Source: an uncultured Candidatus Saccharibacteria bacterium (GTDB lineage: Bacteria; Patescibacteriota; Minisyncoccia; Phycocordibacterales; UBA6899). Taken from it: 64,000 bases of DNA. A model generated the notes under the pieces. It ran no database searches. It saw nothing but the letters and a program-made list of their open reading frames with translations, and was not told where the DNA came from. A program made the position numbers and the translations under genes. The stretch lies in NCBI GenBank assembly GCA_964469335.1, contig CAYXYK010000001.1, positions 235,976 through 299,975 of the forward strand, given 5' to 3'. Shown in pieces: positions 4,849 through 62,924 of this stretch. Each line of letters begins with the position of its first letter. The first letter of the stretch is position 1.

Positions 4849-4849
4849 T

Positions 4850-15308: not shown

Positions 15309-15410
15309 AGATACATGCATGTGGTTATTGTGTAACACTTCAATCAGTATAGCAAAACCCGCACATAGTGTGCGGGTGAATTGCTTGTCGTATTGTGAGG
15401 ATCGAAAAAA

Positions 15411-46133: not shown

Positions 46134-46166
46134 TCGCGCGTCCCATTCTTAGAGAACATTGAAGTT

Positions 46167-46526
46167 ATGACCACTACTCCGGAACAGAAAAAGACAACCA
46201 AAGCAGTAAAGGCTGATGGTATCCAGAAGCTCCGCATTCGTGTACGCGCTTATGAGTACAAGATCCTCGACGCATCAGTGCGTCAGATCATGGACACTGC
46301 GCTCCGCTATGATGCGAAAGTCCTTGGACCGATTCCTCTGCCCACGCAGATCACCAAATATACAGTGAACCGCTCGACCTTCATCTACAAGGATGCACGC
46401 GAGCAGTTCGAAATGCGTATTCACAAGCGCCTTATCGATATCGTAAGCCCCACGCCGAAGATCATCGAAGCGCTCACGAACCTTACTCTACCTAGTGGAG
46501 TAAATATCGACGTGAAAATGATGTAA
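46167..46526 (+). CDS. rpsJ: 30S ribosomal protein S10 (with short N-terminal extension)
   Basis: IRIRVRAYEYKILD ... S10 core. Confidence 0.9.
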   Translation: MTTTPEQKKTTKAVKADGIQKLRIRVRAYEYKILDASVRQIMDTALRYDAKVLGPIPLPTQITKYTVNRSTFIYKDAREQFEMRIHKRLIDIVSPTPKIIEALTNLTLPSGVNIDVKMM

Positions 46527-46671
46527 TCGCACACGCGATACATCACCACAAGTTCTCTTTACGTTTTTGCACCATAGGCTACTCATTCCGCAAGATGAGT
46601 GGGCCTTATGTGCATGATGTAGACACTTCATTCCGGAGTGTGTGCGTGACTATCCCAACCCAAACCCAACC

Positions 46672-47292
46672 ATGAAATTCCTATTAGCAACCAAGCAGGA
46701 GATGACGCAGTACTTCGCCGAAGACGGCAAGTGCATCGCGGCAACTCTTCTCTCTGCAGGCCCGATCACCGTGACCGCCCTCCGAACAAAGGAGAAGGAT
46801 GGTTACGAGGCTGTTCAGGTCGGCTTCGGCACTCAACTTCCGAAGCGCGTCAACAAGGCGCAGCAGGGTGCACTCAAGGAGCTCGGTTCCTTCCGCTACA
46901 TGCGCGAATACCGCCCGAAGAGTGGCGCAGTCGACATCAAAGTCGGCGACAAAGTGACCGTCGAGGCATTCGCCCCCGGCGAAGACATCACCGTGACCGG
47001 CACCTCAAAGGGTAAAGGTTTCCAGGGTGTCGTGAAGCGTCACGGTTTCCACGGCGGACCTCGTTCACACGGTCAGAAGCATTCTGAGCGTGAACCAGGA
47101 TCCATCGGTGCGACCGGACCTCAGCGCGTCATCCCCGGTACTCGCATGGCAGGGCGCATGGGCTCCGACACCATTACGGTGAAGGGACTCAAAGTGCTCG
47201 CCGTCGATACTACAAACAATCTTCTTCTCGTGTCGGGAGCGATCCCGGGTCGTCGCGGGACATTGATCGAGATCAAGGCAACTAACGCATAA
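46672..47292 (+). CDS. rplC: 50S ribosomal protein L3
   Basis: start trimmed to MKFLLATKQEMTQ; GKGFQGVVKRHGF motif. Confidence 0.9.
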   Translation: MKFLLATKQEMTQYFAEDGKCIAATLLSAGPITVTALRTKEKDGYEAVQVGFGTQLPKRVNKAQQGALKELGSFRYMREYRPKSGAVDIKVGDKVTVEAFAPGEDITVTGTSKGKGFQGVVKRHGFHGGPRSHGQKHSEREPGSIGATGPQRVIPGTRMAGRMGSDTITVKGLKVLAVDTTNNLLLVSGAIPGRRGTLIEIKATNA

Positions 47293-47296
47293 TTGT

Positions 47297-48016
47297 ATGA
47301 CAACGAAAACTACAACCGCTAAGAAGCCTGTGAATCTTGAAGCAACTGTCTACACGACGGAAGGCAAGAAGTCAGGCTCAGTGACACTTTCAGAGAAAGT
47401 ATTCGGAGCAAAATGGAATGCAGATCTCGTTCACCAGGTGGTGGTCGCGATGCAAGCCAATGCGCGTCAGCCGATCGCGCACACCAAGGACCGTTCAGAG
47501 GTCCGCGGAGGTGGACGCAAACCTTGGGCACAGAAGGGAACCGGCCGTGCTCGTCACGGATCAAGCCGCTCGCCGATCTGGCGTCACGGTGGTATCACCC
47601 ATGGCCCTCGCAACGATCGTGATTTCTCTCAAAAACTCAACCGCAAGCAGAAGGTCGCCGCGCTCTACACCGTACTTTCCAAGAAGTGGAAGGAAGGCGA
47701 GATCCTCTTTGTCTCATCGGTCGCTCTCAAGGCTCCGAAGACCAAAGATGCGCGCACCATGCTCACGAACCTCGGTTCGATCGGTGGATTCGAGAAGCTC
47801 GCAGATCGCCGCAACAATGCAATGTACATGATCCTTCCTTCGGCAGATGCCAATGTGAAGAAGTCATTCCAGAACATGGGAAATGTACTCGTCGGAACAC
47901 TCAGCACACTCAATCCGGTCGATGTGCTGTCATACAAGTATCTCGTTCTTGCTGCTCCTGAGGAGGCCGTGAAGGCACTCGAAGCGAAGAGCGCGAAGAA
48001 AGAAGTCACCGCATAA
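47297..48016 (+). CDS. rplD: 50S ribosomal protein L4
   Basis: GGGRKPWAQKGTGRARHGS motif. Confidence 0.9.
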   Translation: MTTKTTTAKKPVNLEATVYTTEGKKSGSVTLSEKVFGAKWNADLVHQVVVAMQANARQPIAHTKDRSEVRGGGRKPWAQKGTGRARHGSSRSPIWRHGGITHGPRNDRDFSQKLNRKQKVAALYTVLSKKWKEGEILFVSSVALKAPKTKDARTMLTNLGSIGGFEKLADRRNNAMYMILPSADANVKKSFQNMGNVLVGTLSTLNPVDVLSYKYLVLAAPEEAVKALEAKSAKKEVTA

Positions 48017-48020
48017 TCCT

Positions 48021-48428
48021 ATGGCTATATTCAAGAAGACCACTGCGAAAGCAGCGTCAAAACCAAAGACAGAGAAAGTAGCGAAGGATGTCGTGGTCGC
48101 TGAGGTAGTAAAGGAAGTAAAAATCTCGAAGGCAGGCAAAGGCCTCCTCCTCGAGCAGGTGCTCCTCAATCCTCATGTCACCGAGAAGGCGTCAGACCTC
48201 TCCGAAAAGGGAGTATACGCATTCAACGTCAATCTTCGTGCCAACAAGGACCAGGTTACCCGCGCCGTGAAGCACTTTTTCAAAGTGACTCCGGTGAAGG
48301 TCGCCATGATCGTCAACAAGCCGAAGTACTCGCGCAACCCGCGTACCAACCGCGTACAGGTCAAGAAGGCCGCAATCAAGAAGGCACTTGTATACCTTAA
48401 GAAGGGCGATAAGATCGAGTTCGTGTAA
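48021..48428 (+). CDS. rplW: 50S ribosomal protein L23 with ~40-aa Lys/Ala-rich N-terminal extension
   Basis: core LLNPHVTEKASDLSEKGVYAFNV. Confidence 0.9.
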   Translation: MAIFKKTTAKAASKPKTEKVAKDVVVAEVVKEVKISKAGKGLLLEQVLLNPHVTEKASDLSEKGVYAFNVNLRANKDQVTRAVKHFFKVTPVKVAMIVNKPKYSRNPRTNRVQVKKAAIKKALVYLKKGDKIEFV

Positions 48429-48440
48429 ACGAAAAAACAT

Positions 48441-49286
48441 ATGAAATCATTCAAACCGTTAACTCCGTCACTGCGCAACACGATCCTCACACCCTACAAG
48501 CAGCTCCTCTCCGGTGACTCGAAAAAGAAGCCGAAGAATCTGATGAAGGGTCGCTCGTCGACCGGTGGCCGCAACAACCAGGGACGCATCACCATGCGTC
48601 ACATGGGAGGCGGCAACAAGAAAGCACTCCGCGTCGTCGACTTCAAGTTCGACAAGCGCGATGTGCCGGGAACTGTAGAGGCTGTCCAGTATGACCCCTT
48701 GCGCACCGCATTCGTCGCCCTCGTCGTCTACAAGGATGGAGAGCGCCGCTATATGGTCGCACAGAAGGGCATGAAGGCAGGCGACACATTTATCGTCTCT
48801 GAGAAGGCAACCCTTGATAAGTTCAACCGCACACAACTCAAGAAGATTCCGGTCGGTACATTCGTATCGAACGTCGAGGTCCAACCTGAGGGAGGTGCGA
48901 AGCTCGCTCGTGCGGCAGGAAACTTCATCGAAGTGATCGCCAACGACTTGGGTTACTCATTCCTCAAGATGCCGTCGTCAGAGGTCCGCAAGGTCTCCGA
49001 GAACTGCTGGGCAACCATCGGTGAGGTCTCGAACGATCAGCACAAGCTCCGCAACGAAGGTAAGGCAGGCCGCAACCGCTGGAAGGGCATCCGCCCGCAT
49101 GTCCGCGGTTCTGCGATGAACCCTGTAGATCACCCGCACGGAGGTGGTGAAGGTCGCATGGGACGTGGTCTACGCCGCGCCAAGACTAAGTGGGGTAAAC
49201 CTTCAGGCAAGGGCCAGAAGACCCGCTCGCCGAAGAAGTACTCGAACGTACACATTGTGTCGCGTCGCAAGGTCGGGAAGAAGTAA
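48441..49286 (+). CDS. rplB: 50S ribosomal protein L2
   Basis: GGGNKKALRVVDFKFDK, HPHGGGEG motifs; the usual rpsS-rplV-rpsC continuation is absent downstream. Confidence 0.95.
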   Translation: MKSFKPLTPSLRNTILTPYKQLLSGDSKKKPKNLMKGRSSTGGRNNQGRITMRHMGGGNKKALRVVDFKFDKRDVPGTVEAVQYDPLRTAFVALVVYKDGERRYMVAQKGMKAGDTFIVSEKATLDKFNRTQLKKIPVGTFVSNVEVQPEGGAKLARAAGNFIEVIANDLGYSFLKMPSSEVRKVSENCWATIGEVSNDQHKLRNEGKAGRNRWKGIRPHVRGSAMNPVDHPHGGGEGRMGRGLRRAKTKWGKPSGKGQKTRSPKKYSNVHIVSRRKVGKK

Positions 49287-49345: not shown

Positions 49346-49981
49346 TTACAACTGCTTCAAGATGAGTGCTTTGAGGGATTCGGGGGAGAGGTCGGAGTGG
49401 GTGATGCGGAGGAGGGGGAAGTGGGCGGAGAGTAGAATGCGTTCGACTTCCTCGTCGCGCTCTGTGCGGTCTTCGCGCTCATGAGTTGCGTCGTCGAGTT
49501 CGATCACAAGTTTCGGATTGACCCAGACTTTGTCGCAGAGGAGGAAGTCGACAGACTTCTGATTGATATGGCGCATCGCAGCATTCCAGTTTTGACCTTT
49601 GATTTTCCAGTCGATGAAGGTGCTGATGTGCACTTGCGGGAAAATGTAATATTGGTCTCCGGCCGCTTGGTTGAGCGCGTTGAATGCATCATGCTCCGCT
49701 TTCGTCATCACGAACTGCTTAGTCTCGTAGGAGTAGAGTGATTTCGCCATCTCTCCGCTGCTGTCGGCATAATTCCAGGCGCCCCAGATGAATTCGATCA
49801 GTGGAACGATAATGACGGTAAAGAAATTGCGTTTGCCGTTCCACAGAGTCTTATAATGCAGATATTTCTTGCGCAGGATCAAGAATAATACCGTTCCGAT
49901 GATCAAGAAGAACGCAAGAGCGCCGAGTAGCACCAGTCCGACGATCTCTAGCGCAGTTGTGACGGCATGTGATATGTCCAT
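49346..49981 (-). CDS. membrane-anchored protein with DUF559/DUF2726-like PD-(D/E)xK (Vsr-fold) nuclease-like domain
   Basis: N-terminal TM (LEIVGLVLLGALAFFLIIGTVLFLIL); motif SVDFLLCDKVWVNPKLVIELDDATHERED resembles the D...(I/V)E(L/V)DG..H signature of these families. Confidence 0.55.
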   Translation of the reverse strand: MDISHAVTTALEIVGLVLLGALAFFLIIGTVLFLILRKKYLHYKTLWNGKRNFFTVIIVPLIEFIWGAWNYADSSGEMAKSLYSYETKQFVMTKAEHDAFNALNQAAGDQYYIFPQVHISTFIDWKIKGQNWNAAMRHINQKSVDFLLCDKVWVNPKLVIELDDATHEREDRTERDEEVERILLSAHFPLLRITHSDLSPESLKALILKQL

Positions 49982-50075
49982 ACGTGAAGCATAGCAAAGG
50001 CGGGGGTTTGTACAAATGTTCGAACCGTTTCAAGGGAACGGTTCGAACGCCGGGTTACTATGCTATGCTTACTCC

Positions 50076-50384
50076 ATGACACACGAAGGGAATGAGGGAG
50101 TTCCGACTGGGAAAGAGGAGGTGATCGAGGCGCTCTTGCGTGACCCAGAGAACCTTGCTCCACTCCATGAGTACATGGCGGCACGAGAGGCTGCGTGCAG
50201 GAATGGGGCGGATAATCTCCGGCTCACGCTTGATCTCCTTGATATCTATATTGCAGGAGGTGAAGCGTTCCGTGATGCGGCATGGGAGACACTTGATGCG
50301 GCGTTCGATCAGGCAGAAGGCGAAGCCGATGACACAATTATGGCTGAGCTCCGCTTGCGACAGGCGAAATTGCAGGGTGAATAA
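50076..50384 (+). CDS. small acidic hypothetical protein
   Basis: ORF track (start uncertain: 50016 or 50076). Confidence 0.35.
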   Translation: MTHEGNEGVPTGKEEVIEALLRDPENLAPLHEYMAAREAACRNGADNLRLTLDLLDIYIAGGEAFRDAAWETLDAAFDQAEGEADDTIMAELRLRQAKLQGE

Positions 50385-50417
50385 AAACGCACCCCGCGAC
50401 GCGATGCGTGCGGGGTG
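50384..50417 (-). terminator. palindromic terminator, copy 1 of a repeated element (AAAACGCACCCCGCGACGCGATGCGTGCGGGGTG)
   Basis: hairpin + T-run on minus strand, follows 3' end of gene 50430-50792. Confidence 0.6.
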
Positions 50418-50429
50418 ATGTTGTGAAAG

Positions 50430-50792
50430 TCAGCCGAAGGTGACCTGAAAGCGGAACTCCACTTGCGAGTTGCGGACATCCGCCTTGATGGTGACGATGT
50501 CTGCCCATGCCTTCGCGAGTCCGTCGACCATGCTCCGCACCTTGCGACCGGAGGTGAGGCCGTACTCGCCGAGCGAGTAGGTACCGATGTGGCGTCCGTA
50601 AGTGAACAAGTTGTCAATCAAGTCGACATGTTCGAAGAACTCGTTCCAGTCCGGCGGAGCAGCTGCCCTGAGTTCAGCCTTGCGGGGAGCATCGTTCTTG
50701 GCAATTGATGCCAGTTCTTGTTGGAATCGCTCGAGCGAACCTGCGCGGCCGCAGATCGATGCGGCGATGCAGCCGCGGTAGAGGTGGGTCAT
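50430..50792 (-). CDS. hypothetical protein (120 aa)
   Basis: start trimmed to MTHLYRG preceded by AAGGAG RBS; no family recognised. Confidence 0.45.
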   Translation of the reverse strand: MTHLYRGCIAASICGRAGSLERFQQELASIAKNDAPRKAELRAAAPPDWNEFFEHVDLIDNLFTYGRHIGTYSLGEYGLTSGRKVRSMVDGLAKAWADIVTIKADVRNSQVEFRFQVTFG

Positions 50793-50814
50793 TGCTTCTC
50801 CTTGAATTTGAAGA

Positions 50815-51270
50815 TCAGGGTGAGGCCCGCTTGCGAGGACGGACGTTGGGAGCGTTCTCGCCGCAATAGACCTCCGTTGCCGATCCTTCGCGCTTTGCGA
50901 ACAGTTCGAAGAACAGGATGTCCTGACCGTTGTCGCCGATGGTGACGGTGACGCGGTAGCCGGTCCAGCCATGCTTTTCGACGCCGATGATGTCAGCAAA
51001 AAGTGCCATCAGCTGTGCGTCGTTGTTCCTCTCGTTTCGCACCCAGTCGGTGAGATGGCGGTCGCCGTCCTCGCCGGTGTGTTGCATGAGGATGCTGCGC
51101 CACTGGTCGAGGTCGTGGTCCATCGCGCGGTCGCTGTAGCGCGAGGCGCGTCCCTCATCGTCTTCGTAGTCGAGAGGGAACTGGAACTGCCGAAGCAGCA
51201 TGTGGTTGGCATCCCCACGCGAGCCGAGGCGGCTGAAGTCGTGGGGTTCTGCGGGGTACATTCGTGCCAT
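50815..51270 (-). CDS. hypothetical protein (151 aa)
   Basis: ORF track; stop lies 22 bp upstream of next gene start; no family recognised. Confidence 0.45.
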   Translation of the reverse strand: MARMYPAEPHDFSRLGSRGDANHMLLRQFQFPLDYEDDEGRASRYSDRAMDHDLDQWRSILMQHTGEDGDRHLTDWVRNERNNDAQLMALFADIIGVEKHGWTGYRVTVTIGDNGQDILFFELFAKREGSATEVYCGENAPNVRPRKRASP

Positions 51271-51361
51271 GTCGGGCCTCCGTTGTCGGTTGTTTCCGTT
51301 TTGTATTCTGCCTTAACTTTTGGTTTTGTCAATACCATATTGTGCCAGTATACGTTCACAG

Positions 51362-51398
51362 AAAAAACGCACCCCGCGACGCGTATGCGTGCGGGGTG
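51362..51398 (-). terminator. palindromic terminator, copy 2 (AAAAACGCACCCCGCGACGCGTATGCGTGCGGGGTG)
   Basis: near-identical to copy 1; follows 3' end of gene 51404-51868. Confidence 0.6.
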
Positions 51399-51403
51399 TG
51401 GGT

Positions 51404-51868
51404 CTAGTGTCTCCAGTTGAGGACACGACCGCGGAAGGTATCCCTGGTCCTTCCGGTAAAGAGTTCGATGTGGCGGGAAGCGATGGTGAAGGTGAGTCCG
51501 AGTAGCGAGAAGCAGAGGACCGTGCGGTGGGTGATCCTGCCAAAATATGAGATCGTATGCCGCTCAGTGAAACCGAGTTGGTACATCGGTGCATATTCGA
51601 TCGCGACGCTCGTGAGGTCGACACGTGAGACGTGCTGAATAGCGATGACACCCTCGTGTTGTCGCCAGAGATTGAATTGCCCGACACGCACGACGGCATC
51701 GTCGAGCCATAGGTTCTCGAGTCGCCTTGCTTTTCTTCGTTCACGACGATATTTGCTGGCGACTTTTCTCCCGGCGAATGCGGCAATGATCTGCGCTCCT
51801 GCTTCGGTGTCCGCACCTTCGCTCTCGATCATGCGGACGACGGCACTATTCATCAGCATCAGGTTCAT
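51404..51868 (-). CDS. hypothetical protein (154 aa)
   Basis: ORF track; no family recognised. Confidence 0.4.
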   Translation of the reverse strand: MNLMLMNSAVVRMIESEGADTEAGAQIIAAFAGRKVASKYRRERRKARRLENLWLDDAVVRVGQFNLWRQHEGVIAIQHVSRVDLTSVAIEYAPMYQLGFTERHTISYFGRITHRTVLCFSLLGLTFTIASRHIELFTGRTRDTFRGRVLNWRH

Positions 51869-51986
51869 GGGAACTCCCTGTAAAGTTCAGCTGTGCTCAC
51901 CTTACCACCCATAAAAAGGTCCGCAACTCAGGTGACTCGCCATGTTGTGTACGGTATGCTAGCCTCAAGTCAGAAAGGAGCTCGGC

Positions 51987-52220
51987 ATGAAAATGGGATT
52001 ACACACCGAAAAGGGAAGATTCGTCTTCAGTGCAGGCAAGAGTCAAAATGTCGACGACGGCCTGCGAAGAATATCATCACCGAGTTCGATACTCGGTCTT
52101 GCGGTACTTGCGCAGCAGCACACTACCGCGCAGGAGTTCGTACTTTCGTCGGGGGAGAAGTTCGAGTGCCCGTCAAAAGAACATGTGCTCGCACTTGCCA
52201 TCCGCATGATCTATGCTTGA
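51987..52220 (+). CDS. small hypothetical protein (77 aa)
   Basis: AAGGAG 6 nt upstream of ATG 51987. Confidence 0.4.
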   Translation: MKMGLHTEKGRFVFSAGKSQNVDDGLRRISSPSSILGLAVLAQQHTTAQEFVLSSGEKFECPSKEHVLALAIRMIYA

Positions 52221-52279
52221 CGCAACCCACTGCAAGCATAGGATAGAAATGTTCCGTTCAACCACCGAAGGAGACCGAC

Positions 52280-52459
52280 ATGCCGCACGCAGTTGCCAGT
52301 GTGAAGGAAGAACGCCAGCTCGCGTTCGAGAGGGCGAAGGAGGGAATTGACCCCGCAATCGTCGATCGCATCATGAAGGGACTCCCGGTCCCAGGCGACT
52401 CGTCCGGCCGACTGCTCGTCCTGCGCCAAGCCTGGGCCGCATATCGCGACTGCCTGTAG
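52280..52459 (+). CDS. small hypothetical protein (59 aa, below ORF-track cutoff)
   Basis: manual translation MPHAVASVKEERQLAFERAKEGIDPAIVDRIMKGLPVPGDSSGRLLVLRQAWAAYRDCL; GGAG RBS; terminator CACCCGC...GCGGGTG + T8 at 52460-52505. Confidence 0.4.
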   Translation: MPHAVASVKEERQLAFERAKEGIDPAIVDRIMKGLPVPGDSSGRLLVLRQAWAAYRDCL

Positions 52460-52565
52460 TCGCTGCAGCACCCGCCTCCTCGAGAGAGCGGGTGTGTTTT
52501 TTTTGTATAGATAACAGCATGACCCCGTGTGGGGGCATGCTGTTATCTGCTCTTCACTATATTTC

Positions 52566-52754
52566 CTACGGACGCATGCTGTCGGTGAGTGCGCGGCGTC
52601 GCTCAGAGATCTCCTTAGCACGCTTCTTGAGCCTTTCCCCGTAACCGGTCGCTCTCCCCAGCTCTTTGTCCAAAAGGAGATACCTGTGTTCTTCGCTCAC
52701 TCGTTCGAAAGCGCCACCGTCTTCTGCATTACTTGTGATGATACTCTTTGTCAT
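52566..52754 (-). CDS. small charged protein, paralog 1 of a 3-member tandem family
   Basis: MTKSIITSNAEDGGAFERVSEEHRYLLLDKELGRATGYGERLKKRAKEISERRRALTDSMRP; conserved leader TATTATCATTCATACACCCACAGT directly precedes the ATG. Confidence 0.45.
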   Translation of the reverse strand: MTKSIITSNAEDGGAFERVSEEHRYLLLDKELGRATGYGERLKKRAKEISERRRALTDSMRP

Positions 52755-53020
52755 ACTGTGGGTGTATGAATGATAATATCGAGCATACAACAGTGATGAT
52801 GAAAAAATTGTGAAACGGTTCAGGCAAGTAGGCGTTTCGCGAGTGTTCGTGCGTCGCGTCCTTGCTTCGCTGCACTTTCTGCGCGTTCGGCTCGAGCATG
52901 TTCGTCCTTCTCAGATTGCTGTCTCTTCCCGATCGCTATTTGTGCTTCACGCTCTTCATGGTCATGTGTTTCCCGGAGCAATTGCTCAGATGTTTTTGTG
53001 GCAAGCATACTTGGGAGCTA

Positions 53021-53183
53021 GGGACGCAAACTCAGCGTCAATGCCTTCCGTCGGTGTTCTATCTCTTTTGCATGCTCCTTCATCTGTATCTGATAACTCT
53101 TGGTGAACTCAAGACTACGTTCAGATAGTCTCCGCATCTGTTCTCTCTGTTCTTCTCCCCCCGAACTCTTTTTTATATACATA
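53021..53183 (-). CDS. small charged protein, paralog 2 (54 aa, below ORF-track cutoff)
   Basis: manual translation MYIKKSSGGEEQREQMRRLSERSLEFTKSYQIQMKEHAKEIEHRRKALTLSLRP; same leader sequence upstream; C-terminus HAKEIEHRRKALTLSLRP parallels paralog 1. Confidence 0.4.
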
Positions 53184-53260
53184 CCTGTGGGTGTATGAAT
53201 GAATAATATCCGGACATGATACCGAAGCTTGGTGAAAGAAAAATGAAATGCACGCTGCGT

Positions 53261-53617
53261 TCACTTGGTGTGTCCTGCCGTACGCCGGTGTTCCAATTCC
53301 TTCTCATGTTCACTCACATGCATCTGGTGGGTCAGTTCCGCCTCTTCCGCACGTTCCTTATGTATCCGAGCGCTCTCTTTCAGTAGCTCGTCATGCTCTT
53401 TTTCGAATCCCTCATCCCGCTCCTCCTTAGCTCGGCTGGTCGCGCTTCTCTGCTCGCTGTCCGCTTCCGCTGTCCGCTCTTTCTTCTCCCGACCTTCGTT
53501 CTCTTTTGCTCTGCGACTATCTCCGCGTGCAACCTCTTCTTCTCGGGCAACTCGTGCGCGACTTTTCTCGGCGAGTAGCCGTTCTTCAGTCGCTCTTACT
53601 TCGGTTTTTGTAGACAT
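53261..53617 (-). CDS. charged K/E/R-rich protein, paralog 3 (118 aa)
   Basis: C-terminus EHEKELEHRRTAGHTK related to paralogs 1/2; upstream ATTATTCATATCC resembles the shared leader. Confidence 0.45.
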   Translation of the reverse strand: MSTKTEVRATEERLLAEKSRARVAREEEVARGDSRRAKENEGREKKERTAEADSEQRSATSRAKEERDEGFEKEHDELLKESARIHKERAEEAELTHQMHVSEHEKELEHRRTAGHTK

Positions 53618-53628
53618 GGATATGAATA

Positions 53629-53976
53629 ATGGATAATGACCCCATCATAGCGAGCCTGAGTGAGGAGAAAGTGAGTGAAGCTTCTTCATACCTTGTGCTT
53701 TCTGTCGCGAGGCGTAGCATGAGTGGGTCCTTCAAGGAGAAGACCATGTTGCTCTTTTCACGACTCATCGTGCATTTGCTCCCGGCTCCGAACATCATGA
53801 CCGCCCCGAATGCTCTATACCCTCGTCTCTACGACTCTTGCATGAGCGAAGTGGTGCGCTGGCACCGGTCGTGCCTCGCCCGCCTCATCTTCGAGTATCC
53901 GCTCGAGGAAGCCGACCGTGCGATTTCCGCGCATAGATTCCCGGATATGGAAGAGCGGCACCTCTCGCTCTCGTGA
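53629..53976 (+). CDS. hypothetical protein
   Basis: ORF track; terminator GCTCTTC-TC-GAAGAGC + T-run at 53985-54020. Confidence 0.4.
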   Translation: MDNDPIIASLSEEKVSEASSYLVLSVARRSMSGSFKEKTMLLFSRLIVHLLPAPNIMTAPNALYPRLYDSCMSEVVRWHRSCLARLIFEYPLEEADRAISAHRFPDMEERHLSLS

Positions 53977-54039
53977 ACCGAAATGACAAAGAGCTCTTCT
54001 CGAAGAGCCCTTTTTGTTTCATTCGTCTTATGAAGAGAT

Positions 54040-54072
54040 AAAACGAACCCCGCACTCATGTGGTGCGGGGTG
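54040..54072 (-). terminator. palindromic terminator, copy 3 (variant: AAAACGAACCCCGCACTCATGTGGTGCGGGGTG)
   Basis: same AAAACG-ACCCCGC...GCGGGGTG architecture; follows 3' end of gene 54085-54285. Confidence 0.55.
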
Positions 54073-54084
54073 TATGGCTCCAGA

Positions 54085-54285
54085 TCAGCCGATCTTGGTG
54101 CCTTCTGGGCTGTAGACGTGGGCGATGATGCCTTGGCTGAGGAGGTCCTTCGCGAGCGTACGAGCCGCTTCTTCCGTTTCTTTGGTGGGGACACAGAGTC
54201 TCCCTTCTCCGTCCTCATCCCTGTATGCGACAGAGAATTGTCCAGGATTGGTCACTGCATCTTTCGGGGGTTCGGTCCAAGCCAT
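54085..54285 (-). CDS. small hypothetical protein (66 aa)
   Basis: ORF track. Confidence 0.4.
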   Translation of the reverse strand: MAWTEPPKDAVTNPGQFSVAYRDEDGEGRLCVPTKETEEAARTLAKDLLSQGIIAHVYSPEGTKIG

Positions 54286-54447
54286 GCCGGGTTCTCCTTG
54301 TAAAATCCTTTTTCATTTTCTTCGAATTTCACTCCGTGTCAATGTGAAACTTCCCGCCGCGGCGTTACAGGGGAATCATTCTTGAGTTATTCCCTTCGTC
54401 ATGTTTGGATGTACAAGGATTATTCATGTTCACCTGAAGGGGAAATC

Positions 54448-54657
54448 ATGGGATATGATCTCAATCAGTCGTCGGTCCTGAGTCGTCGGCTGTCTCAAAA
54501 GTCGACCGTGCAGCGAGACATCAGTCCATATGACCTTTCTGCGGTCGCCGCTGCAGCTAGAGCACTTGCGGCGCGGCCCGATCCGCCGCCTCAGCTTGAG
54601 AGTCTCTATGATCTCGACACCATCGCCCGCATCGATCGCCATTTTGGTCGCCGCTAG
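54448..54657 (+). CDS. small hypothetical protein
   Basis: start trimmed to MGYDLNQ; terminator GGGAGC-ATCC-GCTCCC + T-run at 54650-54690. Confidence 0.35.
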   Translation: MGYDLNQSSVLSRRLSQKSTVQRDISPYDLSAVAAAARALAARPDPPPQLESLYDLDTIARIDRHFGRR

Positions 54658-54767
54658 AAAAGGGAGCATCCGCTCCCTTTATTTCTTGCACGAGTATTAT
54701 TGACATAAATCAATAATACCGTATAATATACAAAGCTGTATCCCTTGGATCCCTGAAAGGAATCACC

Positions 54768-55145
54768 ATGAAAGTCGTTCTTGTTGCTGAGGATCATCCG
54801 GTCGTCCGGGTCACCCTTGTCGCCCTGCTCGAGACATTCGGCATCTTTACGGTCGTTGCTGTCGAGAACGGTAAGAAAGCGTTGGAGTACCTCGAAACAC
54901 TCCCGCCGCATGTCACGAAGACCCTCCTCATCACCGACTGGGACATGCCGGAGATGACCGGCATCGAGCTGGTGCAGGCTATCCGTGCCGATGCTCGCCT
55001 CATGAGGACGCCGATCATCATGACCAGCAGCCGGACGCCGGAAGAGATCGCCTCTGCCCTTTCGCTAGGGGTGGATGCCTTCATCGACAAGCCTGCCCCG
55101 ACCGATCAGCTCGAAGACCTCGTTCATCGCTATCTCGATTCGTGA
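54768..55145 (+). CDS. orphan single-domain response regulator (receiver only)
   Basis: VLVAEDHPVVR ... LLITDWDMPEMTGIEL ... FIDKP; terminator CACGCGCCC-TCG-GGCGCGTG + T-run at 55153-55185. Confidence 0.8.
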   Translation: MKVVLVAEDHPVVRVTLVALLETFGIFTVVAVENGKKALEYLETLPPHVTKTLLITDWDMPEMTGIELVQAIRADARLMRTPIIMTSSRTPEEIASALSLGVDAFIDKPAPTDQLEDLVHRYLDS

Positions 55146-55243
55146 ATCTCTGACACGCGCCCTCGGGCGCGTGTTCCTTTTTATATTGACAGTACCCACC
55201 GAAAAGCACACTATAAAAATGGATCAATTACTTTGGAGGCTCT

Positions 55244-55609
55244 ATGAGCAATATCAGGATACTCATCGTCGACGATGACAAAGTGTTCCGCGATGCCGCT
55301 GCGAAGTGGCTCGCAAGAGAAGGCTTCGAAGACGTCAGCGTTCTTGGGAATGCGATATCCGCCCTCGAGCGTATCGCCGTCGATGGCGACTATGACCTCC
55401 TCATCACCGACTTCAACATGCCGGAGATGACCGGAGTGCAACTGATCGAACGAGTGCGCTCGCTCGGACGGATCGAACCTCCCAAGTTCATCGTAATGAG
55501 TGCCGGGAAGAATTCCGAGGTCGCACTTCGTGGCGGTGCAGATCGGTTCTTCTCCAAGCTGACACCACTCGACGAGCTGTCTATGGCAATCGCGGAGTTG
55601 TTCCCATGA
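55244..55609 (+). CDS. orphan single-domain response regulator (receiver only)
   Basis: ILIVDDDKVFRD ... LLITDFNMPEMTGVQL ... FFSKL; terminator at 55625-55665. Confidence 0.8.
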   Translation: MSNIRILIVDDDKVFRDAAAKWLAREGFEDVSVLGNAISALERIAVDGDYDLLITDFNMPEMTGVQLIERVRSLGRIEPPKFIVMSAGKNSEVALRGGADRFFSKLTPLDELSMAIAELFP

Positions 55610-55653
55610 TACTTGTCGGAAAAGTGAAAGGCCCCCTTCTCAGGAAGGGGGCC

Positions 55654-56016
55654 TCATTGTTTCTCCTTCGTGTCGAACAGAAGGATTTGTCGTTGTGAAG
55701 GTGGAGGATCGCCGTGCTCTTCGAGCAGCGCGTAGAGGTGTGAAAGGTGAGCGATGCGCGTGAGCGGGTCCAAGATGTAGAGACTTGAGAACCGGTCGTA
55801 GGCGCGAATACGGCGGAGGACGAGGGACCGCGCATGGCCGGAGTCACCAACCCCGAGGGTCGGGTTCGCTCTTCGCCAAGCAAGTAATTCATCGAAGCTC
55901 AGACACTCCTCATTGAAAACACTGTTCTCTCGGTAGCTCCGTTCAAACAGCAATGCTACGCCAACGAGCATCGAAAGTGAGATCAGGCTCTGTATCGCGA
56001 CTGCCGGATGATCCAT
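55654..56016 (-). CDS. small hypothetical membrane protein
   Basis: ORF track; one TM helix. Confidence 0.4.
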   Translation of the reverse strand: MDHPAVAIQSLISLSMLVGVALLFERSYRENSVFNEECLSFDELLAWRRANPTLGVGDSGHARSLVLRRIRAYDRFSSLYILDPLTRIAHLSHLYALLEEHGDPPPSQRQILLFDTKEKQ

Positions 56017-56091
56017 GGGCTTCTCCAGGTTGAGGGAAGGGCGTCTGCTTATAGTTATGCCAAATTAGGGTATTTTGGCAAGGGGACGAGT

Positions 56092-56919
56092 ATGTCACGC
56101 GGGAGAAACGAGAGTGTTACAATGATCGCAATGAAGAAAACACTCAGCATCGGCGTGGGACTCCTCACTCTTATTATTATTCTCCTTATTGGCAAATGGG
56201 CGATGATTGGTCGCGATGCCGTGAGTGTAACCCCCCCGACTCCTTTGCCTGAGTCATCGCTCGCTTCATACAAAAATGATACGTTCGGTGTTTCTTTCTC
56301 ATATCCGAAAGCGATCACTCCGGAGACAGAGTTCAAGTCGTTCTACCACCTCAGTTCCGACTGGCGTGTGGGCGAGTCAGATGACGTGAGCGGAACACCT
56401 CTCGTCGCGATCCCGCTCTATCGCATCGATAATGGGGGAGTATATAAGAGCTACCCGATGTATTACTCCGCCGAGCTCCGCGTGGGAGTAAGTACGAGTA
56501 GTGTTGCCCTTGCCGAGTGTCTCACTGGAGGAAAGGAAAACAATCTCGAGTTAGGTGAAGGTCCGACCACCACGGTGATCAATGGCATCGAGTGGAAGAA
56601 AGTCCCCGTCGGCTCTGGTGGTATGATGCAGTTTCTATACGGGAACAGTTATCGCTTGATTCGAGGTGACACATGTATCACCGTCGAGACACTCAAGACG
56701 GGAAGTAACTATCGTGACACACCTTCACCCGAAGATATCTCCGATGTCGATCTCGAGTCGCACTATACTGCCCTCGATACCATCCTTGCAACTCTGCACG
56801 TCGATTTCACCGGAGTGCACTGCGGAGGCAATATCCGCACTGCACCGACATGTCCAAACGGATATCATTGCCAGCTCGGGACAATCCCAGACGTTGGCGG
56901 TAGTTGTGTCGCCGACTGA
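56092..56919 (+). CDS. hypothetical secreted/membrane-anchored protein with Cys-rich C-terminus
   Basis: start chosen at MSRGRNE after GGGGA RBS (alternatives 56119/56128); TM/signal TLSIGVGLLTLIIILLIG; C-terminal CGGNIRTAPTCPNGYHCQLGTIPDVGGSC. Confidence 0.5.
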   Translation: MSRGRNESVTMIAMKKTLSIGVGLLTLIIILLIGKWAMIGRDAVSVTPPTPLPESSLASYKNDTFGVSFSYPKAITPETEFKSFYHLSSDWRVGESDDVSGTPLVAIPLYRIDNGGVYKSYPMYYSAELRVGVSTSSVALAECLTGGKENNLELGEGPTTTVINGIEWKKVPVGSGGMMQFLYGNSYRLIRGDTCITVETLKTGSNYRDTPSPEDISDVDLESHYTALDTILATLHVDFTGVHCGGNIRTAPTCPNGYHCQLGTIPDVGGSCVAD

Positions 56920-56928
56920 ACCAAGATC

Positions 56929-57138
56929 ATGAAACATTTGAATGAACAGACAGAAGCAATAGCTCGTTCGATCAGCGATGCATCGCAGATGAAAGGGATA
57001 CAGTGGAATCGCGTCACCTGGTATTCATGGTGGCTTGCTATCATTCTTTTTTGTGTGGTCATTCCCGCACTCTCGTTCTATATCGGTGTGCAGTATGAGA
57101 TCACCAAAGAAGCTGCCCGCGAAGCACATGTAAGGTAA
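56929..57138 (+). CDS. small membrane protein (69 aa)
   Basis: ORF track; WYSWWLAIILFCVVIPALSFYIG helix. Confidence 0.4.
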   Translation: MKHLNEQTEAIARSISDASQMKGIQWNRVTWYSWWLAIILFCVVIPALSFYIGVQYEITKEAAREAHVR

Positions 57139-57211
57139 CTTGCATGAACGTATTTCCCGAGTAGAGTATTGAAGGAATAATTTTGTACGTTCTCAATGAA
57201 GAGGAGCCACC

Positions 57212-57610
57212 ATGGAGAAACATTCTCAAGTGCTTTTGGTCACAAGGAACAGACATGCCCGCCAAGCACTGGCGAGAAGGGTGTCAGCGATCGGACATGA
57301 AGTCATCGACGTGCACAGTGCCGCCACCGCATTCGACCTGCTCGTCGGAAGAGCATGCAACCCCGTGAAACCGCAGTTCGCCCTCGTCATCGTCGAGCGG
57401 GATTCTGTCGAGATTCCCGCGATCAGTCTGGTCGACGAGATGCGTAGTGGGGATCGGACCAACGCCATCCCTGTTCTGATCGTCGCACAGCGATTGACCG
57501 ACAGTGATCAAGTGGCGGCACATCGACTCGGGCACTGCCGGGTCATCAAGCACAGCTCAGACGACCGGGTGCTCCGTGCCGGGATCGGTTCCCTCACCGG
57601 AGTGAGATGA
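57212..57610 (+). CDS. degenerate receiver-like domain protein (pseudo-receiver)
   Basis: GAGGAG RBS; receiver-like layout (VLLVTRNRHA ... ALVIVERDSV ... VLIVAQ) but the N-terminal acidic pair is replaced by TRN. Confidence 0.55.
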   Translation: MEKHSQVLLVTRNRHARQALARRVSAIGHEVIDVHSAATAFDLLVGRACNPVKPQFALVIVERDSVEIPAISLVDEMRSGDRTNAIPVLIVAQRLTDSDQVAAHRLGHCRVIKHSSDDRVLRAGIGSLTGVR

Positions 57611-57701
57611 ATGAATGGCCGCGTCTTTGGATGCGGTCATGTTTTTTATAAAAAAGAACCCCGAGCACATGATCGTGTCGGGGGGGGGTGAGAATCGGTA
57701 C

Positions 57702-57977
57702 TCATGCTGCCTCAGCGGTTGCGGGCAGGTGCTTCCTGCGGAGGTGCAGGTAGGTACGTGCCGGACATTTGCCACCCTCTCCGCATGGATGGCCACCCTG
57801 AGCGGAGAGCGAGAACTCGCGGATCGCTGCACTGCAGTCGCATTTGTCGTTCGCGACCAGAGGACAATCCTTGGCGTCGCTGTAGGGAGTTCCTCTCCCG
57901 GTATCCTCCATGAAGATCGAATAGAACGTTTCCCTTGTCACCGCCATGGGAGCAATATGTGTCGCTCGACGGGGCAT
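57702..57977 (-). CDS. small Cys-containing hypothetical protein
   Basis: AAGGAG RBS before ATG 57977; CPLVANDKCDC ... HPCGEGGKCP; terminator at 57650-57695; competing overlapping ORFs rejected. Confidence 0.35.
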   Translation of the reverse strand: MPRRATHIAPMAVTRETFYSIFMEDTGRGTPYSDAKDCPLVANDKCDCSAAIREFSLSAQGGHPCGEGGKCPARTYLHLRRKHLPATAEAA

Positions 57978-58124
57978 GATCATCTCCTTGAAATGAAAGG
58001 TACAGAAAAAAAGGCGCTACCAGCGGGTAGCGCCTTTCCAGGTTGAGACATGTGTCTTCACTGGGATTCATTCTCTTCCTTTCGCTGTGTTGTGTAAAGT
58101 GAGTAGTGTGGACAAGATGGTGGC

Positions 58125-58343
58125 TCAATGAGTGAGTTTTCCGGTGATGGCGGTCTGCTCTATGAGCTGGACTTCCTGTTCGGGTTGGATGACCACTTTC
58201 GTCGGACGGGAGATGATCTTTCCAGTGCTGTCACCTCCGCGCACCTCGTCCACTCTTCCTTCGAAGGTCTTCCGGAAGAGCGGCGAACGGCCAGGTGACA
58301 ACACCGCAAAGATGTCACCGGTGCTCAGGTCTTTGTATCGCAT
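58125..58343 (-). CDS. small hypothetical protein (72 aa)
   Basis: AAGGGAG RBS 6 nt before ATG 58343; terminator GGCGCTACC-AGC-GGGTAGCGCC at 58003-58040 downstream. Confidence 0.45.
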   Translation of the reverse strand: MRYKDLSTGDIFAVLSPGRSPLFRKTFEGRVDEVRGGDSTGKIISRPTKVVIQPEQEVQLIEQTAITGKLTH

Positions 58344-58468
58344 GGCACACTCCCTTAGGTTGGACTCGGCTCATCTTATTCAGAATGACGGGCTCGTCAA
58401 ATACCTGTTTCTTTTTGCTGATGTGCGGCGTTATAATTGCATACAACTTATTCCATTCATTTTCACCA

Positions 58469-59049
58469 TGAAAAAGACATTCATCGTCATCGCTATCATC
58501 CTTGTGCTCGCCCTCCTTCCGCTTCTCGGCACATATAATAGTATCGTCGCGCTGAATCAGGACACCGCGGCAAAATGGTCGCAAGTAGAGGGACAATACC
58601 AGCGTCGCATGGACCTCATTCCGAATTTGGTCGCTACCGTAAAGGGAGCTGCGAACTTCGAGCAGACGACACTTACTGCGGTGGTCGAGGCGCGTGCAAA
58701 AGCCACCCAAGTGACGGTCGATCCGAGCAAGCTCGACGCCGAAAGCATCGCAAAGTATCAGGCGGCACAGGGCGAACTTTCGAGTGCACTCGGAAAATTG
58801 CTGATGATCACCGAGAACTACCCGACGCTTACCGCGACCGAGAACTTCAAAGACCTGCAGTCGCAGATCGAAGGAACCGAGAACCGCATCGCGGTATCAC
58901 GAAAAGATTTCGGCGACTCGGTGCAAACCTATAACACGAAGGTTTCTCAGTTTCCGGGCAATATCGTCGCGAAACTTTTTGGCTTCGCCCCCAAGGCATA
59001 CTTTAAGGCAGACCAAAGCGCGGCAGCCGCTCCTTCTGTTGCATTCTAA
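58469..59049 (+). CDS. lemA: LemA-family membrane protein
   Basis: start trimmed to MKKTFIVIAIIL; LemA-like NSIVALNQDTAAKWSQVEGQYQRRMDLIPNLV region. Confidence 0.8.
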
Positions 59050-59061
59050 ATCGATCACGAT

Positions 59062-59943
59062 ATGAAGCGCATATTTCTTCTCGTTGCGCTTGGTCTCGTC
59101 TTCGTACCGGGGACGCTGTTCGCCTATACTTCCCCGGGTGCTCCAAGCGGATATGTGAATGATTTCGCTTCAGTCCTTACACAGGAAGAACGAACGACAC
59201 TCGAAGCAACGCTCAAAGATTTCCATCAAGAGTACGGTGGGGAAGTGGGCGTCGTCACCGTCCCAACACTCGGAGGTGATGCGATCGAGGATTATGCGAA
59301 TACATTATTCCGTGAATGGGGGATCGGACAGAAAGATAAGAACAACGGCGTATTGCTGGTCGTTGCGATTGAAGACAGGAGCCTACGCATCGAAGTTGGA
59401 TATGGGTACGAAGGCTCGCTCACTGATGCCCGCTCATCTGAGATCATCAGAAATGCGATTACTCCCTATTTCAAACAGAATGCATACGGGCTCGGCATCA
59501 TGACAGGAGTGAAGGACATCATCACGACGGTGACGACCGGAGAAGTCCCCGTCGAGCATCAAGATACTTCGGTCGGATTGCCTACCCAAGATACCCTCAC
59601 GACTTGGCTCTTTGTGCTCTTCGTCATATTTCCGTGGATCGCAAGCGTGTTCGGAAGAAGTAAATCGTGGTGGGCAGGCGGTATCGCCGGTGCCGCAGTC
59701 GGAAGCCTAGTCTCCGTTCTTTTTGGATTGGCATCGTGGGTGTATCCGGTCATCGTAGCTACGATCATCGGACTCATATTCGACCTGATCGTGTCGAGGG
59801 GGTACCGTAGCAGCGTCGCTTCAGGCTCCCGCCCACCATGGTGGACCGGGGGAGGCGGTTTTGGAGGAGGGAGTTCAAGTGGAGGGTTCGGAGGGTTTGG
59901 CGGAGGGTCGTCCGGTGGAGGTGGAGCGAGTGGACGTTGGTGA
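59062..59943 (+). CDS. TPM-domain (YgcG-like) protein with Gly-rich C-terminus
   Basis: signal peptide, TPM-like NGVLLVVAIEDRSLRIEVGYG region, TM, terminal GGGFGGGSSSGGFGGFGGG; usual LemA partner. Confidence 0.8.
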   Translation: MKRIFLLVALGLVFVPGTLFAYTSPGAPSGYVNDFASVLTQEERTTLEATLKDFHQEYGGEVGVVTVPTLGGDAIEDYANTLFREWGIGQKDKNNGVLLVVAIEDRSLRIEVGYGYEGSLTDARSSEIIRNAITPYFKQNAYGLGIMTGVKDIITTVTTGEVPVEHQDTSVGLPTQDTLTTWLFVLFVIFPWIASVFGRSKSWWAGGIAGAAVGSLVSVLFGLASWVYPVIVATIIGLIFDLIVSRGYRSSVASGSRPPWWTGGGGFGGGSSSGGFGGFGGGSSGGGGASGRW

Positions 59944-59944
59944 A

Positions 59945-60898
59945 CTATCCGATCAACACCGAGCGCATCGATATACTCCCGTGCGCAATGCCTTCGACCG
60001 GAAAGCTCGGTCCTTCGTCTTCTTCCTCTAGCCCTAATATATAGAGCAGCGGCCAGTAGTGGTCCGGCGTCGGGATCGAAAGCGCAGCAGCATGTCCGAG
60101 CCCTTCGTAGTTCAAGAGTGTGGTGTGGTCATGTTTCAATATCAGGTCCTTCGCAGCATTGTCGAAATCCGCTGCCCATGCGAATTCTCTCGCACCCTCA
60201 TTGAAATCGATCATGCTGAGGTTGTGCACGATATTGCCGCTCCCAAGGATCAGCACTCCGCGTCTCCGCAGTATCGCGAGTTCTTTCGCGAGTGCATAGT
60301 GCTCTTTGTGTGAACGGGTCATGTCGATACTCATTTGAAACACCGGTATTTCGGCGGCGGGGTACATCCGATGCAGCACTATCCATGTGCCATGGTCGAT
60401 ACCCCAATCGATGTCAGGGCGGACTACGGTGCCAGTGACCGCCTCGCGGGTAGCATTCGCATAGACGGGTGATCCCGGGCATGGATAGTTGAGATCGTAG
60501 AGCTGTTTCGGGAAGCCCCAGAAATCATGGATCGTGCGTGGGTGTTCGGCTATATGCACCTCTGTCCCGCGAGTGAGCCAATGTGCGGAGATCGACAGGA
60601 TTGCTACTGGCTTCGGTAGCGATTTCCCGAGGGTTTCCCATCCTAACGAAAAGGCGTTGTCTTCGATCCCGTTCATTGGAGAGCCATGCCCAACAAATAA
60701 AGCCGGCATACGCTTTGTTTTCGGGAGGTCACTCAGTTTTGCCAATAGTCCAAGGCCAGTCATCCGTCCATTGTCTCGCCCGATCGGACCAGAGTCAATT
60801 TTCGCCCCCATCCCCAAAGGGGTGGATAACCCCATATCGATGTGAGCTGTAGCGTATATAATGATAAGTACGAGTATTTCGCACCTTGCGCGCTGCAT
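59945..60898 (-). CDS. LigB-type extradiol ring-cleavage dioxygenase class III (YgiD-like) with N-terminal signal-like extension
   Basis: MPALFVGHGSPMN start of catalytic domain, HWLTRG, LILGSGNIVHNL motifs. Confidence 0.75.
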   Translation of the reverse strand: MQRARCEILVLIIIYATAHIDMGLSTPLGMGAKIDSGPIGRDNGRMTGLGLLAKLSDLPKTKRMPALFVGHGSPMNGIEDNAFSLGWETLGKSLPKPVAILSISAHWLTRGTEVHIAEHPRTIHDFWGFPKQLYDLNYPCPGSPVYANATREAVTGTVVRPDIDWGIDHGTWIVLHRMYPAAEIPVFQMSIDMTRSHKEHYALAKELAILRRRGVLILGSGNIVHNLSMIDFNEGAREFAWAADFDNAAKDLILKHDHTTLLNYEGLGHAAALSIPTPDHYWPLLYILGLEEEDEGPSFPVEGIAHGSISMRSVLIG

Positions 60899-61330
60899 GT
60901 GTTCTCATGTTTTGAGAAACGAACAGGACGTAGTGTGTGAAAAATTCCATTCCATGTGGTTCTCTCACACTACGTCCCTACAGTTCAAATGATGAAGTGA
61001 CGGAAAAAACGGCGCCGAGTCAGATGAATTGTGCATCTTTCGTATCAACACATGTCGAGCCATCCTTGTATCTACAGCAACAAGAGAGAAGGACGGTGAA
61101 GAGAAACGAGAGGGACAAATTCTTTGTGCAAGGTGTAAAAATGTAGAGAGCCCAAGCTGCAACGCGCCACGTTGTTTTCGGACAGAGAAGGTCCTGTAGA
61201 CCTCACCGCCCGGAATGCACGCTCATCGAAAGATGGCACCAAGCAAACAAAACACCGTACCCGGCAAGGTGCGGTGTTTTGATTTGCTGAAAAGGAAAGC
61301 GCGCACCAAGAGGTGCGCGCTTTGTTGCGA

Positions 61331-61693: not shown

Positions 61694-61755
61694 GAGAGGT
61701 CTCCTGTGAAGTCCAGCATAAAAATAGCAAGCAAGACTATTCTGTCAACACAAAG

Positions 61756-62808: not shown

Positions 62809-62924
62809 GGAAATAATGTAGCAATTTATTCATTCTCTGCAATAGAACCACTTCGAGAACAGCTTTTACCTGAATATGCTGTCTAGGGATGGCTCTGCGT
62901 ACTGTGGTAGAATTTTGCCATTGT

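Follow-up and report, generated by a model that had tools for sequence, protein, structure and literature searches.

The window analyzed here, a 64-kb stretch of contig CAYXYK010000001.1 from an uncultured Candidatus Saccharibacteria bacterium, contains an array of small genes encoding highly charged proteins, two of which are preceded by a nearly identical leader directly upstream of the start codon. The array genes all lie on the minus strand and were named P1, P2, P3, and P4 from head to tail (Table 1). The initial annotation of this region listed three open reading frames (ORFs), all of which are present on the minus strand; however, it omitted P3, and the array consists of four consecutive small minus-strand ORFs within 52509-53659. 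The ORF that it placed at 53021-53183 exists as P2, but the start was off by 1 nt and the stop codon was left out. The C-terminal sequences and leader strings that it quoted agreed exactly with the sequence. P2 was overlooked by gene callers in all of the metagenome contigs that carry it.

Two types of sequence were distinguished among the encoded proteins: Y-type, which comprises P2, P4, and the C-terminal half of P1, and X-type, which is rich in E, R, K, and A and comprises P3 and the N-terminal half of P1. P3 starts 9 nt past the stop codon of P2, and the two genes are probably cotranscribed. The inverted repeat that closes the array is probably its terminator. A hairpin also follows each Y-type gene in the other loci, with the exception of P2 in the window and P2 in the sister species L018, where P3 comes next.

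Table 1. Positions of the genes and associated elements of the P1-P4 array in the window.
Feature	Position	Strand	Description
P1	53261-53617	-	118 aa; 51% charged residues
P2	53018-53182	-	54 aa; Y-type, P2 subfamily; N-terminus MYIKK...; pI 10
P3	52820-53008	-	62 aa; X-type charged protein without its own leader
P4	52566-52754	-	62 aa counted from the conserved ATG; Y-type, P4 subfamily; N-terminus MTKSII...; pI 9.6
P1 upstream region	53618-53659	-	TATGAT at 53644-53649; ATTATTCATA at 53621-53630, then 3 nt, then ATG
P2 promoter and leader	53183-53221	-	-10-like TATCAT at 53216-53221; leader TATTATTCATTCATACACCCACAGGT at 53183-53208
P4 promoter and leader	52755-52787	-	-10-like TATGCT at 52782-52787; leader ATATTATCATTCATACACCCACAGT
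P2 predicted hairpin	CAUAC 53193-53197 / GUAUG 53180-53184	-	folding
P4 predicted hairpin	UCAUAC 52764-52769 / GUAUGA 52751-52756	-	folding
18-bp inverted repeat closing the array	52509-52548	not assigned	repeat search; putative terminator

All four ORFs are real genes under purifying selection. Nei-Gojobori counts between the window and L018 (a Logan contig of 16.9 kb), which carries an identical array, gave ratios of nonsynonymous to synonymous substitutions (dN/dS) of 0.07 for P1, 0.06 for P2, 0.21 for P3, and 0.15 for P4, with dS values of 0.68-1.02; the genes adjoining the array gave similar ratios of 0.12-0.19 against L018. A third species, L021, retains P1, P2, a longer P3, and P4, all in frame. 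The low-complexity composition, the failure of gene callers to find P2, and the lack of database families would fit purine-rich non-coding DNA that yields K/E/R-rich frames by chance. However, the excess of synonymous over nonsynonymous changes in all four frames effectively refutes this explanation, to which we assign virtually no weight; the frames and lengths are also kept in L018 and L021, and conserved aromatic and C-terminal motifs recur in at least eight clusters.

P2 and P4 aligned over 36-50 residues with 35-44% identity (composition-adjusted BLASTP E = 4e-8; Smith-Waterman z = 9.5, a score reached in 0/1000 shuffles). Residues 65-114 of P1 aligned with almost the whole of P2 (E = 3e-6, z = 7.5, 0/1000 shuffles) and constitute a P2-like Y-type domain, its ALTxSLRP tail having been lost. 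P2, P4, and the C-terminal half of P1 are therefore true paralogs, as had been claimed for the three genes reported initially, and by both the composition-adjusted E values and the shuffles their similarity exceeds that of charged low-complexity sequence, the objection that the initial annotation had itself raised. P3 showed no significant similarity to P2, P4, or the C-terminal half of P1. A direct paralogous relationship between P3 and the N-terminal half of P1 was also considered and rejected (z = 1.5-1.7).

A conserved leader upstream of the Y-type genes

Exactly two copies of the 17-mer CATTCATACACCCACAG are present in the 64 kb, one directly before P4 (52756-52772) and the other directly before P2 (53185-53201). 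No further copies were found in the window with up to three mismatches (expected number, 0.07), and two matches were obtained in 0/100 shuffles, so the near-identity of the leaders before these two genes, first noticed in the initial annotation, is real. The consensus of the leader, which is approximately 26 nt long, is ATTAT-YAY-TCATAC-ACCCACA(G/A/T/-)-GTATG, also written ATTAT..TCATACACCCACA(G)GTATG. It precedes all 11 of the Y-type genes examined, which come from seven species-level loci, and a twelfth copy is implied by the read-through translation of P0012 (…TIIIHTPTGM…).

Comparison of these loci revealed stronger constraint on the leader than on any other part, the coding sequence included: the mean pairwise identity was 0.83 for the leader (-26 to -1), against 0.68 for codon positions 1 and 2, 0.39 for codon position 3, 0.51 further upstream, and 0.41 in the 3' flank. 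Single-nucleotide indels (G/GG, an extra T, and a missing A) occur within the leader and exclude a protein-coding role for it. P2-type and P4-type leaders hold subfamily-specific signatures across species, so that concerted evolution is not needed to account for their identity. The proposal of a functional cis element under selection right before the start codon was thus borne out by the conservation of the leader relative to the coding positions, and the leader is probably a new cis-regulatory element.

The third leader described in the initial annotation as related, that of P1, resembles the others in part. A covariance model built from nine leaders recovered, in the 124 kb searched, only those nine copies and a weak match at the start of P1 (15.4 bits; E = 3.9 over 124 kb and E = 0.006 over the 201 nt around the P1 start). 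The P1 leader is a degenerate relative of the Y-type leader: the TATGAT box and ATTATTCATA are present, and the ACACCCACAGGT core and the hairpin described below are missing. The upstream region of P1 is approximately 93% identical to that of L018, and the TATGAT...ATTATTCATA pair is also found 5' of the long P3 gene in L021.

A scan of metagenomes with the leader pattern yielded one new locus, L021. The same pattern had two matches in the GTDB scan, both within unrelated coding sequence without an ATG, and two matches in viral sequences, each before a 10-aa ORF; these four are regarded as chance matches. At gathering thresholds, Rfam recognized only two tRNAs in the window, and at E <= 10 over 52450-53760 no Rfam match overlapped either leader core, the best match falling on the terminator hairpin.

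The initial annotation took the TATTAT at the beginning of the leader as -10-like. This hexamer degrades in the P2 orthologs (TATTAA in L018 and CATTAA in L021), whereas a TAT[ACG][CA]T box further upstream is kept in 10/11 leaders, 33 nt before the ATG in eight of the 11 and 27 nt before it in two (P4 of the window and L014); the more general TAnnnT pattern was met in 10/11. The boxes listed in Table 1 for P2 and P4, with the consensus TATRMT, are likely the -10 elements, and the ATTAT... block would represent the first bases of a 5' untranslated region (UTR) of approximately 26 nt; TATTAT is thus more likely the start of the 5' UTR than a promoter box. The start signals of other genes in the window are mixed, being of the leaderless type (a -10 hexamer 6-8 nt before the start), led by a Shine-Dalgarno (SD) sequence (GGAGG), or neither, and the Y-type genes stand out in the window by their conserved, SD-less leader. 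Starts with TAnnnT 6-8 nt upstream include those of the genes at 14325-15338, 49346-49981, 61756-62808, and 62889-63932, and GGAGG was found in a minority; the recurrence of TAnnnT at this distance before many starts in the window suggests leaderless mRNAs. The RR1 promoter is canonical (TTGACA at 54700, a spacing of 16, and TATAAT at 54722).

The Y- and X-type proteins and the history of the array

The Y-type proteins share the C-terminal motif Y-x4-K-x-[HR]-A-K-E-[IV]-x2-RR[RK]ALTx[SG][LMI]RP, an N-terminal MTKSII/MYIKK motif, and a first helix containing LLW; L27, Y38, K43, R52, R53, A55, L56, T57, R61, and P62 were invariant in our alignment. They are basic (pI 9.6-10.0), and P1 has a pI of 6.0. 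AlphaFold2, applied to nine sequences, predicted for P4 a two-helix hairpin with helices at residues 6-31 and 38-60, the conserved basic helix being the C-terminal one (mean predicted local distance difference test score 75, approximately 90 in helix 2). The four proteins of the window contain 39-51% charged residues, their grand average of hydropathy (GRAVY) is -1.0 to -1.7, and their longest hydrophobic run is 2-3 residues. Because of this high charge, the negative GRAVY, and the lack of any hydrophobic run longer than 3 residues, P1-P4 appear to be soluble cytoplasmic proteins rather than membrane toxins or secreted effectors.

Neither P1-P4 nor nine family members matched any entry in Pfam, NCBIfam, or PHROGs, and searches for a PDB sequence match or a fold match gave nothing, in agreement with the earlier description of a family of unknown function. 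A HMMER profile search of 1.84 billion representative proteins returned five real relatives, and a profile search of 5.8 billion protein clusters returned eight, all from one uncultured lineage. With the family profile, no relative was found among the species-representative genomes of GTDB, and viral contigs and phage genomes contained no relatives of the proteins. P1 has a single ortholog in the protein database, and its orthologs were confined to L018 and L021; the orthologs of P2 are P0005, P0013, and that of L021. P2-type orthologs were found in L014, L018, and L021, and P4-type orthologs in L009, L010, L011, L017, L018, and L021. A single Y-type gene is present in L009, L010, L011, L014, and L017, and the expanded array is present only in the window, L018, and L021. 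As judged from these searches, the Y- and X-type proteins are a new orphan family of small proteins confined to one uncultured lineage. Most likely they act in the cytoplasm as small adaptors, binding or regulatory, for nucleic acid or protein, and a role as enzyme, toxin, or secreted effector is unlikely.

This distribution bears on the age of the array, whose genes the initial annotation considered recently duplicated and possibly a diversified effector or immunity set; the identity of the leaders would then reflect youth or gene conversion. The tandem arrangement fits such a history, as does the location in a variable island, which also holds a nuclease-like gene (DUF2726) and, in relatives, genes for NADAR or Exo_endo_phos proteins. 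However, P2 and P4 have diverged to 35-44% identity, subfamily orthologs with their own leader signatures exist in other species-level lineages, and dS is 0.7-1.0 even against the sister species. Since synonymous sites are near saturation and the subfamilies have their own orthologs, the identity of the leaders reflects purifying selection rather than youth. Moreover, P2-type and P4-type orthologs occur where the response regulators are only approximately 40% identical to those of the window, which indicates, on this comparative evidence, that the P2/P4 duplication is ancient. Membership in an effector or immunity set likewise found no support: the proteins have no signal peptide, hydrophobic N-terminus, or transmembrane segment and no toxin or immunity domain, the dN/dS values of 0.06-0.21 give no sign of diversifying selection, and there are no phage or viral relatives, the two viral matches to the leader pattern being due to chance. 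We consider a recent origin of this kind very improbable.

Sequence comparisons among the relatives also gave information on how the array was assembled. P3 has homologs in L018, L021, and L010 (z = 9.5-12). The P3 of L021 is longer (approximately 93 aa). A separate 81-aa ORF in L010 matches the N-terminal part of this longer P3 (z = 4.3) and in turn resembles the N-terminal half of P1 (z = 3.2, 1/500 shuffles). The gene thus remains complete in L021, and the P3 of the window corresponds to its C-terminal part. We infer an ancestral two-gene module, consisting of an X gene with the TATGAT/ATTATTCATA promoter followed by a leader-bearing Y gene, that would have been present in at least three tandem copies before deletions occurred. 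P1 would be an X-Y fusion that retained the X promoter. The P3 of the window and of L018 would derive from an X gene by loss of the N-terminal part, the promoter, and the terminator ahead of it, which would have left it coupled to P2. The arrangements in L021 and L010 and the shuffle tests support this history. A simple triplicated unit, as suggested by the leader spacing of 427/429 nt in the window, was rejected because the spacing in L021 is 435/650 nt and the regularity is thus partly coincidental. In L010, a P3-like gene (3943-4134) aligns to the conserved P3 C-terminus (...AKAKRDARTIGGRALG) only with a frameshift in a run of A residues; an error in assembly, a pseudogene, and programmed slippage are possible explanations.

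Genomic neighborhood of the array

All of the loci are syntenic: the Y-type gene or array lies in a variable island, where its neighbors are LemA, TPM, and one or two CheY-like response regulators with only a receiver domain. Among the relatives, the island interrupts the ribosomal-protein gene cluster between its rplB side and its rpsS side. The tuf-rpsJ-rplC-rplD-rplW-rplB run ends after rplB in the window (44934-49286 and 49346-63932), L014, L018, and L009, and is followed by 7-13 kb of variable sequence with DUF2726, many small ORFs, two CheY-like regulators, LemA, TPM, LigB, and QueA. This lineage thus has a split S10 operon, since in the relatives rpsS-rplV-rpsC... resumes only past the island. 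The spc block of L014 likewise stops after rplE, beside a Peptidase_M50 gene. The uL2 protein was approximately equidistant from those of all solved ribosomes.

Several other small ORFs surround the Y-type genes. A very basic 19-codon ORF (MGRGDNKIK.E.KKPKK.K) lies directly 5' of the leader-bearing Y gene in L009 (8286-8345), L011 (285-344), and L014 (9795-9851) and is not present in the window; in L009 and L011, it has its own promoter-like box and is followed by a terminator hairpin. There is a faint resemblance between its RGD-x-[KR]... start and the ARGDSRRAKENE motif of P1. A second orphan family of small proteins (MLLFSRLIVHLLPAP...VVRWHRSCLARLIFEYPLEEADRA) is encoded on the opposite strand and flanks the Y gene or array, at 53746-53976 (+) in the window, 9161-9391 and 10640-10951 in L018, and 4645-4857 and 5261-5542 in L017. 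Its paralogs are found on both sides of the array or Y gene in L017 and L018, and the downstream copy has been lost in the window. Convergent with the array is a conserved 59-aa ORF at 52280-52459 (+), which has no family match and is 88% identical in L018, 68% in L017, and 54% in L009; two back-to-back hairpins (52464-52548) separate it from P4.

Eight metagenome contigs of the same species that carry the array (L001-L008) are all shorter than 2 kb, and most of them break at or near the same two flanks, approximately at window positions 52100 and 53800. The recurrence of breaks at the same two flanks suggests strain-level heterogeneity around the array. One of these contigs, L004, starts with a 55-nt segment copied from within P1.

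Possible function of the leader and comparison with known systems

The arms (U)CAUAC and GUAUG(A) of the leader can pair, with the AUG inside the 3' arm. Folding predicted this same hairpin as both the minimum-free-energy and the centroid structure in 11/11 leaders (-3.3 to -5.2 kcal/mol). Length changes are confined to the loop, which measures 6-8 nt, and the arms are fixed apart from a single change that gives a U-G pair. The AUG of P4-type leaders was predicted to be mostly paired (unpaired probability of 0.00-0.11 in 6/7), compared with a median unpaired probability of 0.48 for 45 other starts in the window. In addition, the invariance of the ACCCACA loop suggests sequence-specific recognition by a protein or an RNA.

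These features are consistent with the leader being a transcribed translational control element common to the Y paralogs, a reading to which we assign a probability of about 0.5. Each Y-type gene would carry its own cassette, consisting of a TATRMT -10 box, approximately 7 variable nucleotides, and the approximately 26-nt leader, which would be transcribed as a 5' UTR without an SD sequence in a genome whose genes are otherwise mostly leaderless or SD-led. The leader would then set or gate the initiation of translation of all Y paralogs jointly, either through the marginally stable (U)CAUAC/GUAUG(A) hairpin, which would hold the AUG in its 3' arm, or through a trans-acting factor that recognizes the invariant ACCCACA loop. 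A CsrA-type GGA site was considered for the leader and rejected, since the leaders of P4 and L009 have no GG. Inspection of the leader sequence gave no convincing match to the anti-SD sequence or elsewhere in 16S rRNA, and the window contains no complementary sequence able to act in trans on the leader loop.

Several observations weigh against a translational control element. The P2-type leaders, and that of L009 in its 63-nt context, leave the AUG partly open. The hairpin shows no covariation, five of its six pairs being invariant, and its stability is barely above that of shuffled controls (z = -0.45 to -2.3); half of the stem is moreover the start codon, which is conserved for other reasons anyway. 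The transcription start site is placed solely by a -10-like box without a recognizable -35 element, the invariant loop is equally compatible with a DNA operator, and no homology or fold match directly supports any function for the proteins. Finally, a sigma-70-like promoter match on the opposite strand overlaps the P4 leader. This match (52748-52777, +) covers the leader and start codon of P4, reads TTGTCA-18-GATAAT, and agrees with the consensus at 10/12 positions; it could drive an antisense or divergent transcript.

Some of these points would be expected if the leader acted at the DNA level, as an operator or promoter for a dedicated transcription factor or an alternative sigma factor, with CATAC...GTATG as a protein-binding palindrome. 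The core is invariant, asymmetric, and flanked by inverted arms of 5-6 bp, the RNA structure lacks covariation support, and no housekeeping -35 element is obvious; the TATGAT...ATTATTCATA module before P1 and the long P3 gene of L021 also indicates that part of the cassette is promoter-like. However, a dimeric operator would not usually have its arms at a variable spacing, here 6-8 nt, and the conservation continues up to and through the start codon. The adjoining response regulators are receiver-only, without a DNA-binding domain, and no regulator gene is consistently adjacent across the loci. We regard such a role at the DNA level as the chief alternative, at a clearly lower probability than translational control.

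The leader may instead be merely an efficient SD-independent initiation region that is kept for high expression, with neither a switch nor a trans-acting factor. Many genes in this genome have no SD sequence, several being of the leaderless type, and the 5' part of the leader is AU-rich and its hairpin marginal, as such a region would allow. Its sequence is nevertheless missing from the other genes of the window, the invariant part (ACCCACA) is C-rich rather than AU-rich, and near-identity at saturated divergence exceeds what a generic context needs, which makes purely constitutive initiation unlikely, more so than a role at the DNA level. A bolder extension of the translational control reading is that the leader represents a new class of sequence-specific translational operator that is read by the Y-type proteins themselves, as RNA-binding Rop-like or ribosome-associated proteins, in an autoregulated module within the ribosomal-protein cluster; we think this improbable, more so than either of the two preceding alternatives.

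From an uncultured lineage with unusual translation-initiation signals, the array contributes verified genes of very small size, one of them overlooked by every gene caller, and a candidate cis-regulatory leader without an Rfam counterpart. Since the leader is more conserved than its proteins, it provides a compact and easily mutated test case for the control of SD-less genes, and it also offers a handle on the binding partners of the orphan helical-hairpin proteins. The wider impact is limited for now, as the family is confined to a few metagenomic genomes.

We compared the array with four kinds of known systems. Like RNA thermometers (Synechocystis hsp17, fourU, and ROSE), the Y leader is a very short leader located directly before a small-protein gene, with one marginally stable hairpin, here a predicted one, that includes the initiation codon, and it is common to paralogous genes. 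Unlike them, it has no SD sequence, UUUU, or ROSE signature and no Rfam match at E <= 10, and its loop is invariant, which suggests sequence-specific recognition over pure melting.

Type I toxin-antitoxin loci (ldr, ibs, hok, and zor) resemble the array in their tandem duplicated ORFs of approximately 60 codons or fewer, which are often unannotated, and in a conserved leader for each copy that is able to pair with its own start region. Type I toxins are hydrophobic membrane peptides, however, whereas the array proteins have the charge, GRAVY values, and short hydrophobic runs (<=3 residues) given above and are not hydrophobic toxins; furthermore, the window holds no evident antisense RNA gene except for the one opposite-strand promoter-like match, and no other complementary copy.

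Hydrophilins and general-stress proteins (YciG/GsiB with KGG repeats, CsbD/YjbJ, and LEA-like proteins) are likewise small, extremely hydrophilic, rich in K, E, and R, and often paralogous. Hydrophilins are defined by a glycine content above 6% and a hydrophilicity index above 1. All four array proteins are sufficiently hydrophilic, but glycine exceeds 6% only in P4 (8.1%), the other three having 3.2-3.7%; in addition, the array proteins have no Pfam or NCBIfam match to these families, and the Y-type is predicted to form a defined helical hairpin. That hairpin is the feature shared with two-helix hairpin regulators (Rop/Rom, Spo0E-like phosphatases, and NepR-type anti-sigma factors), which resemble the Y-type proteins in their size of approximately 60 aa and predicted helix-loop-helix structure, and the location of the array close to CheY-like response regulators is a further likeness to this group.

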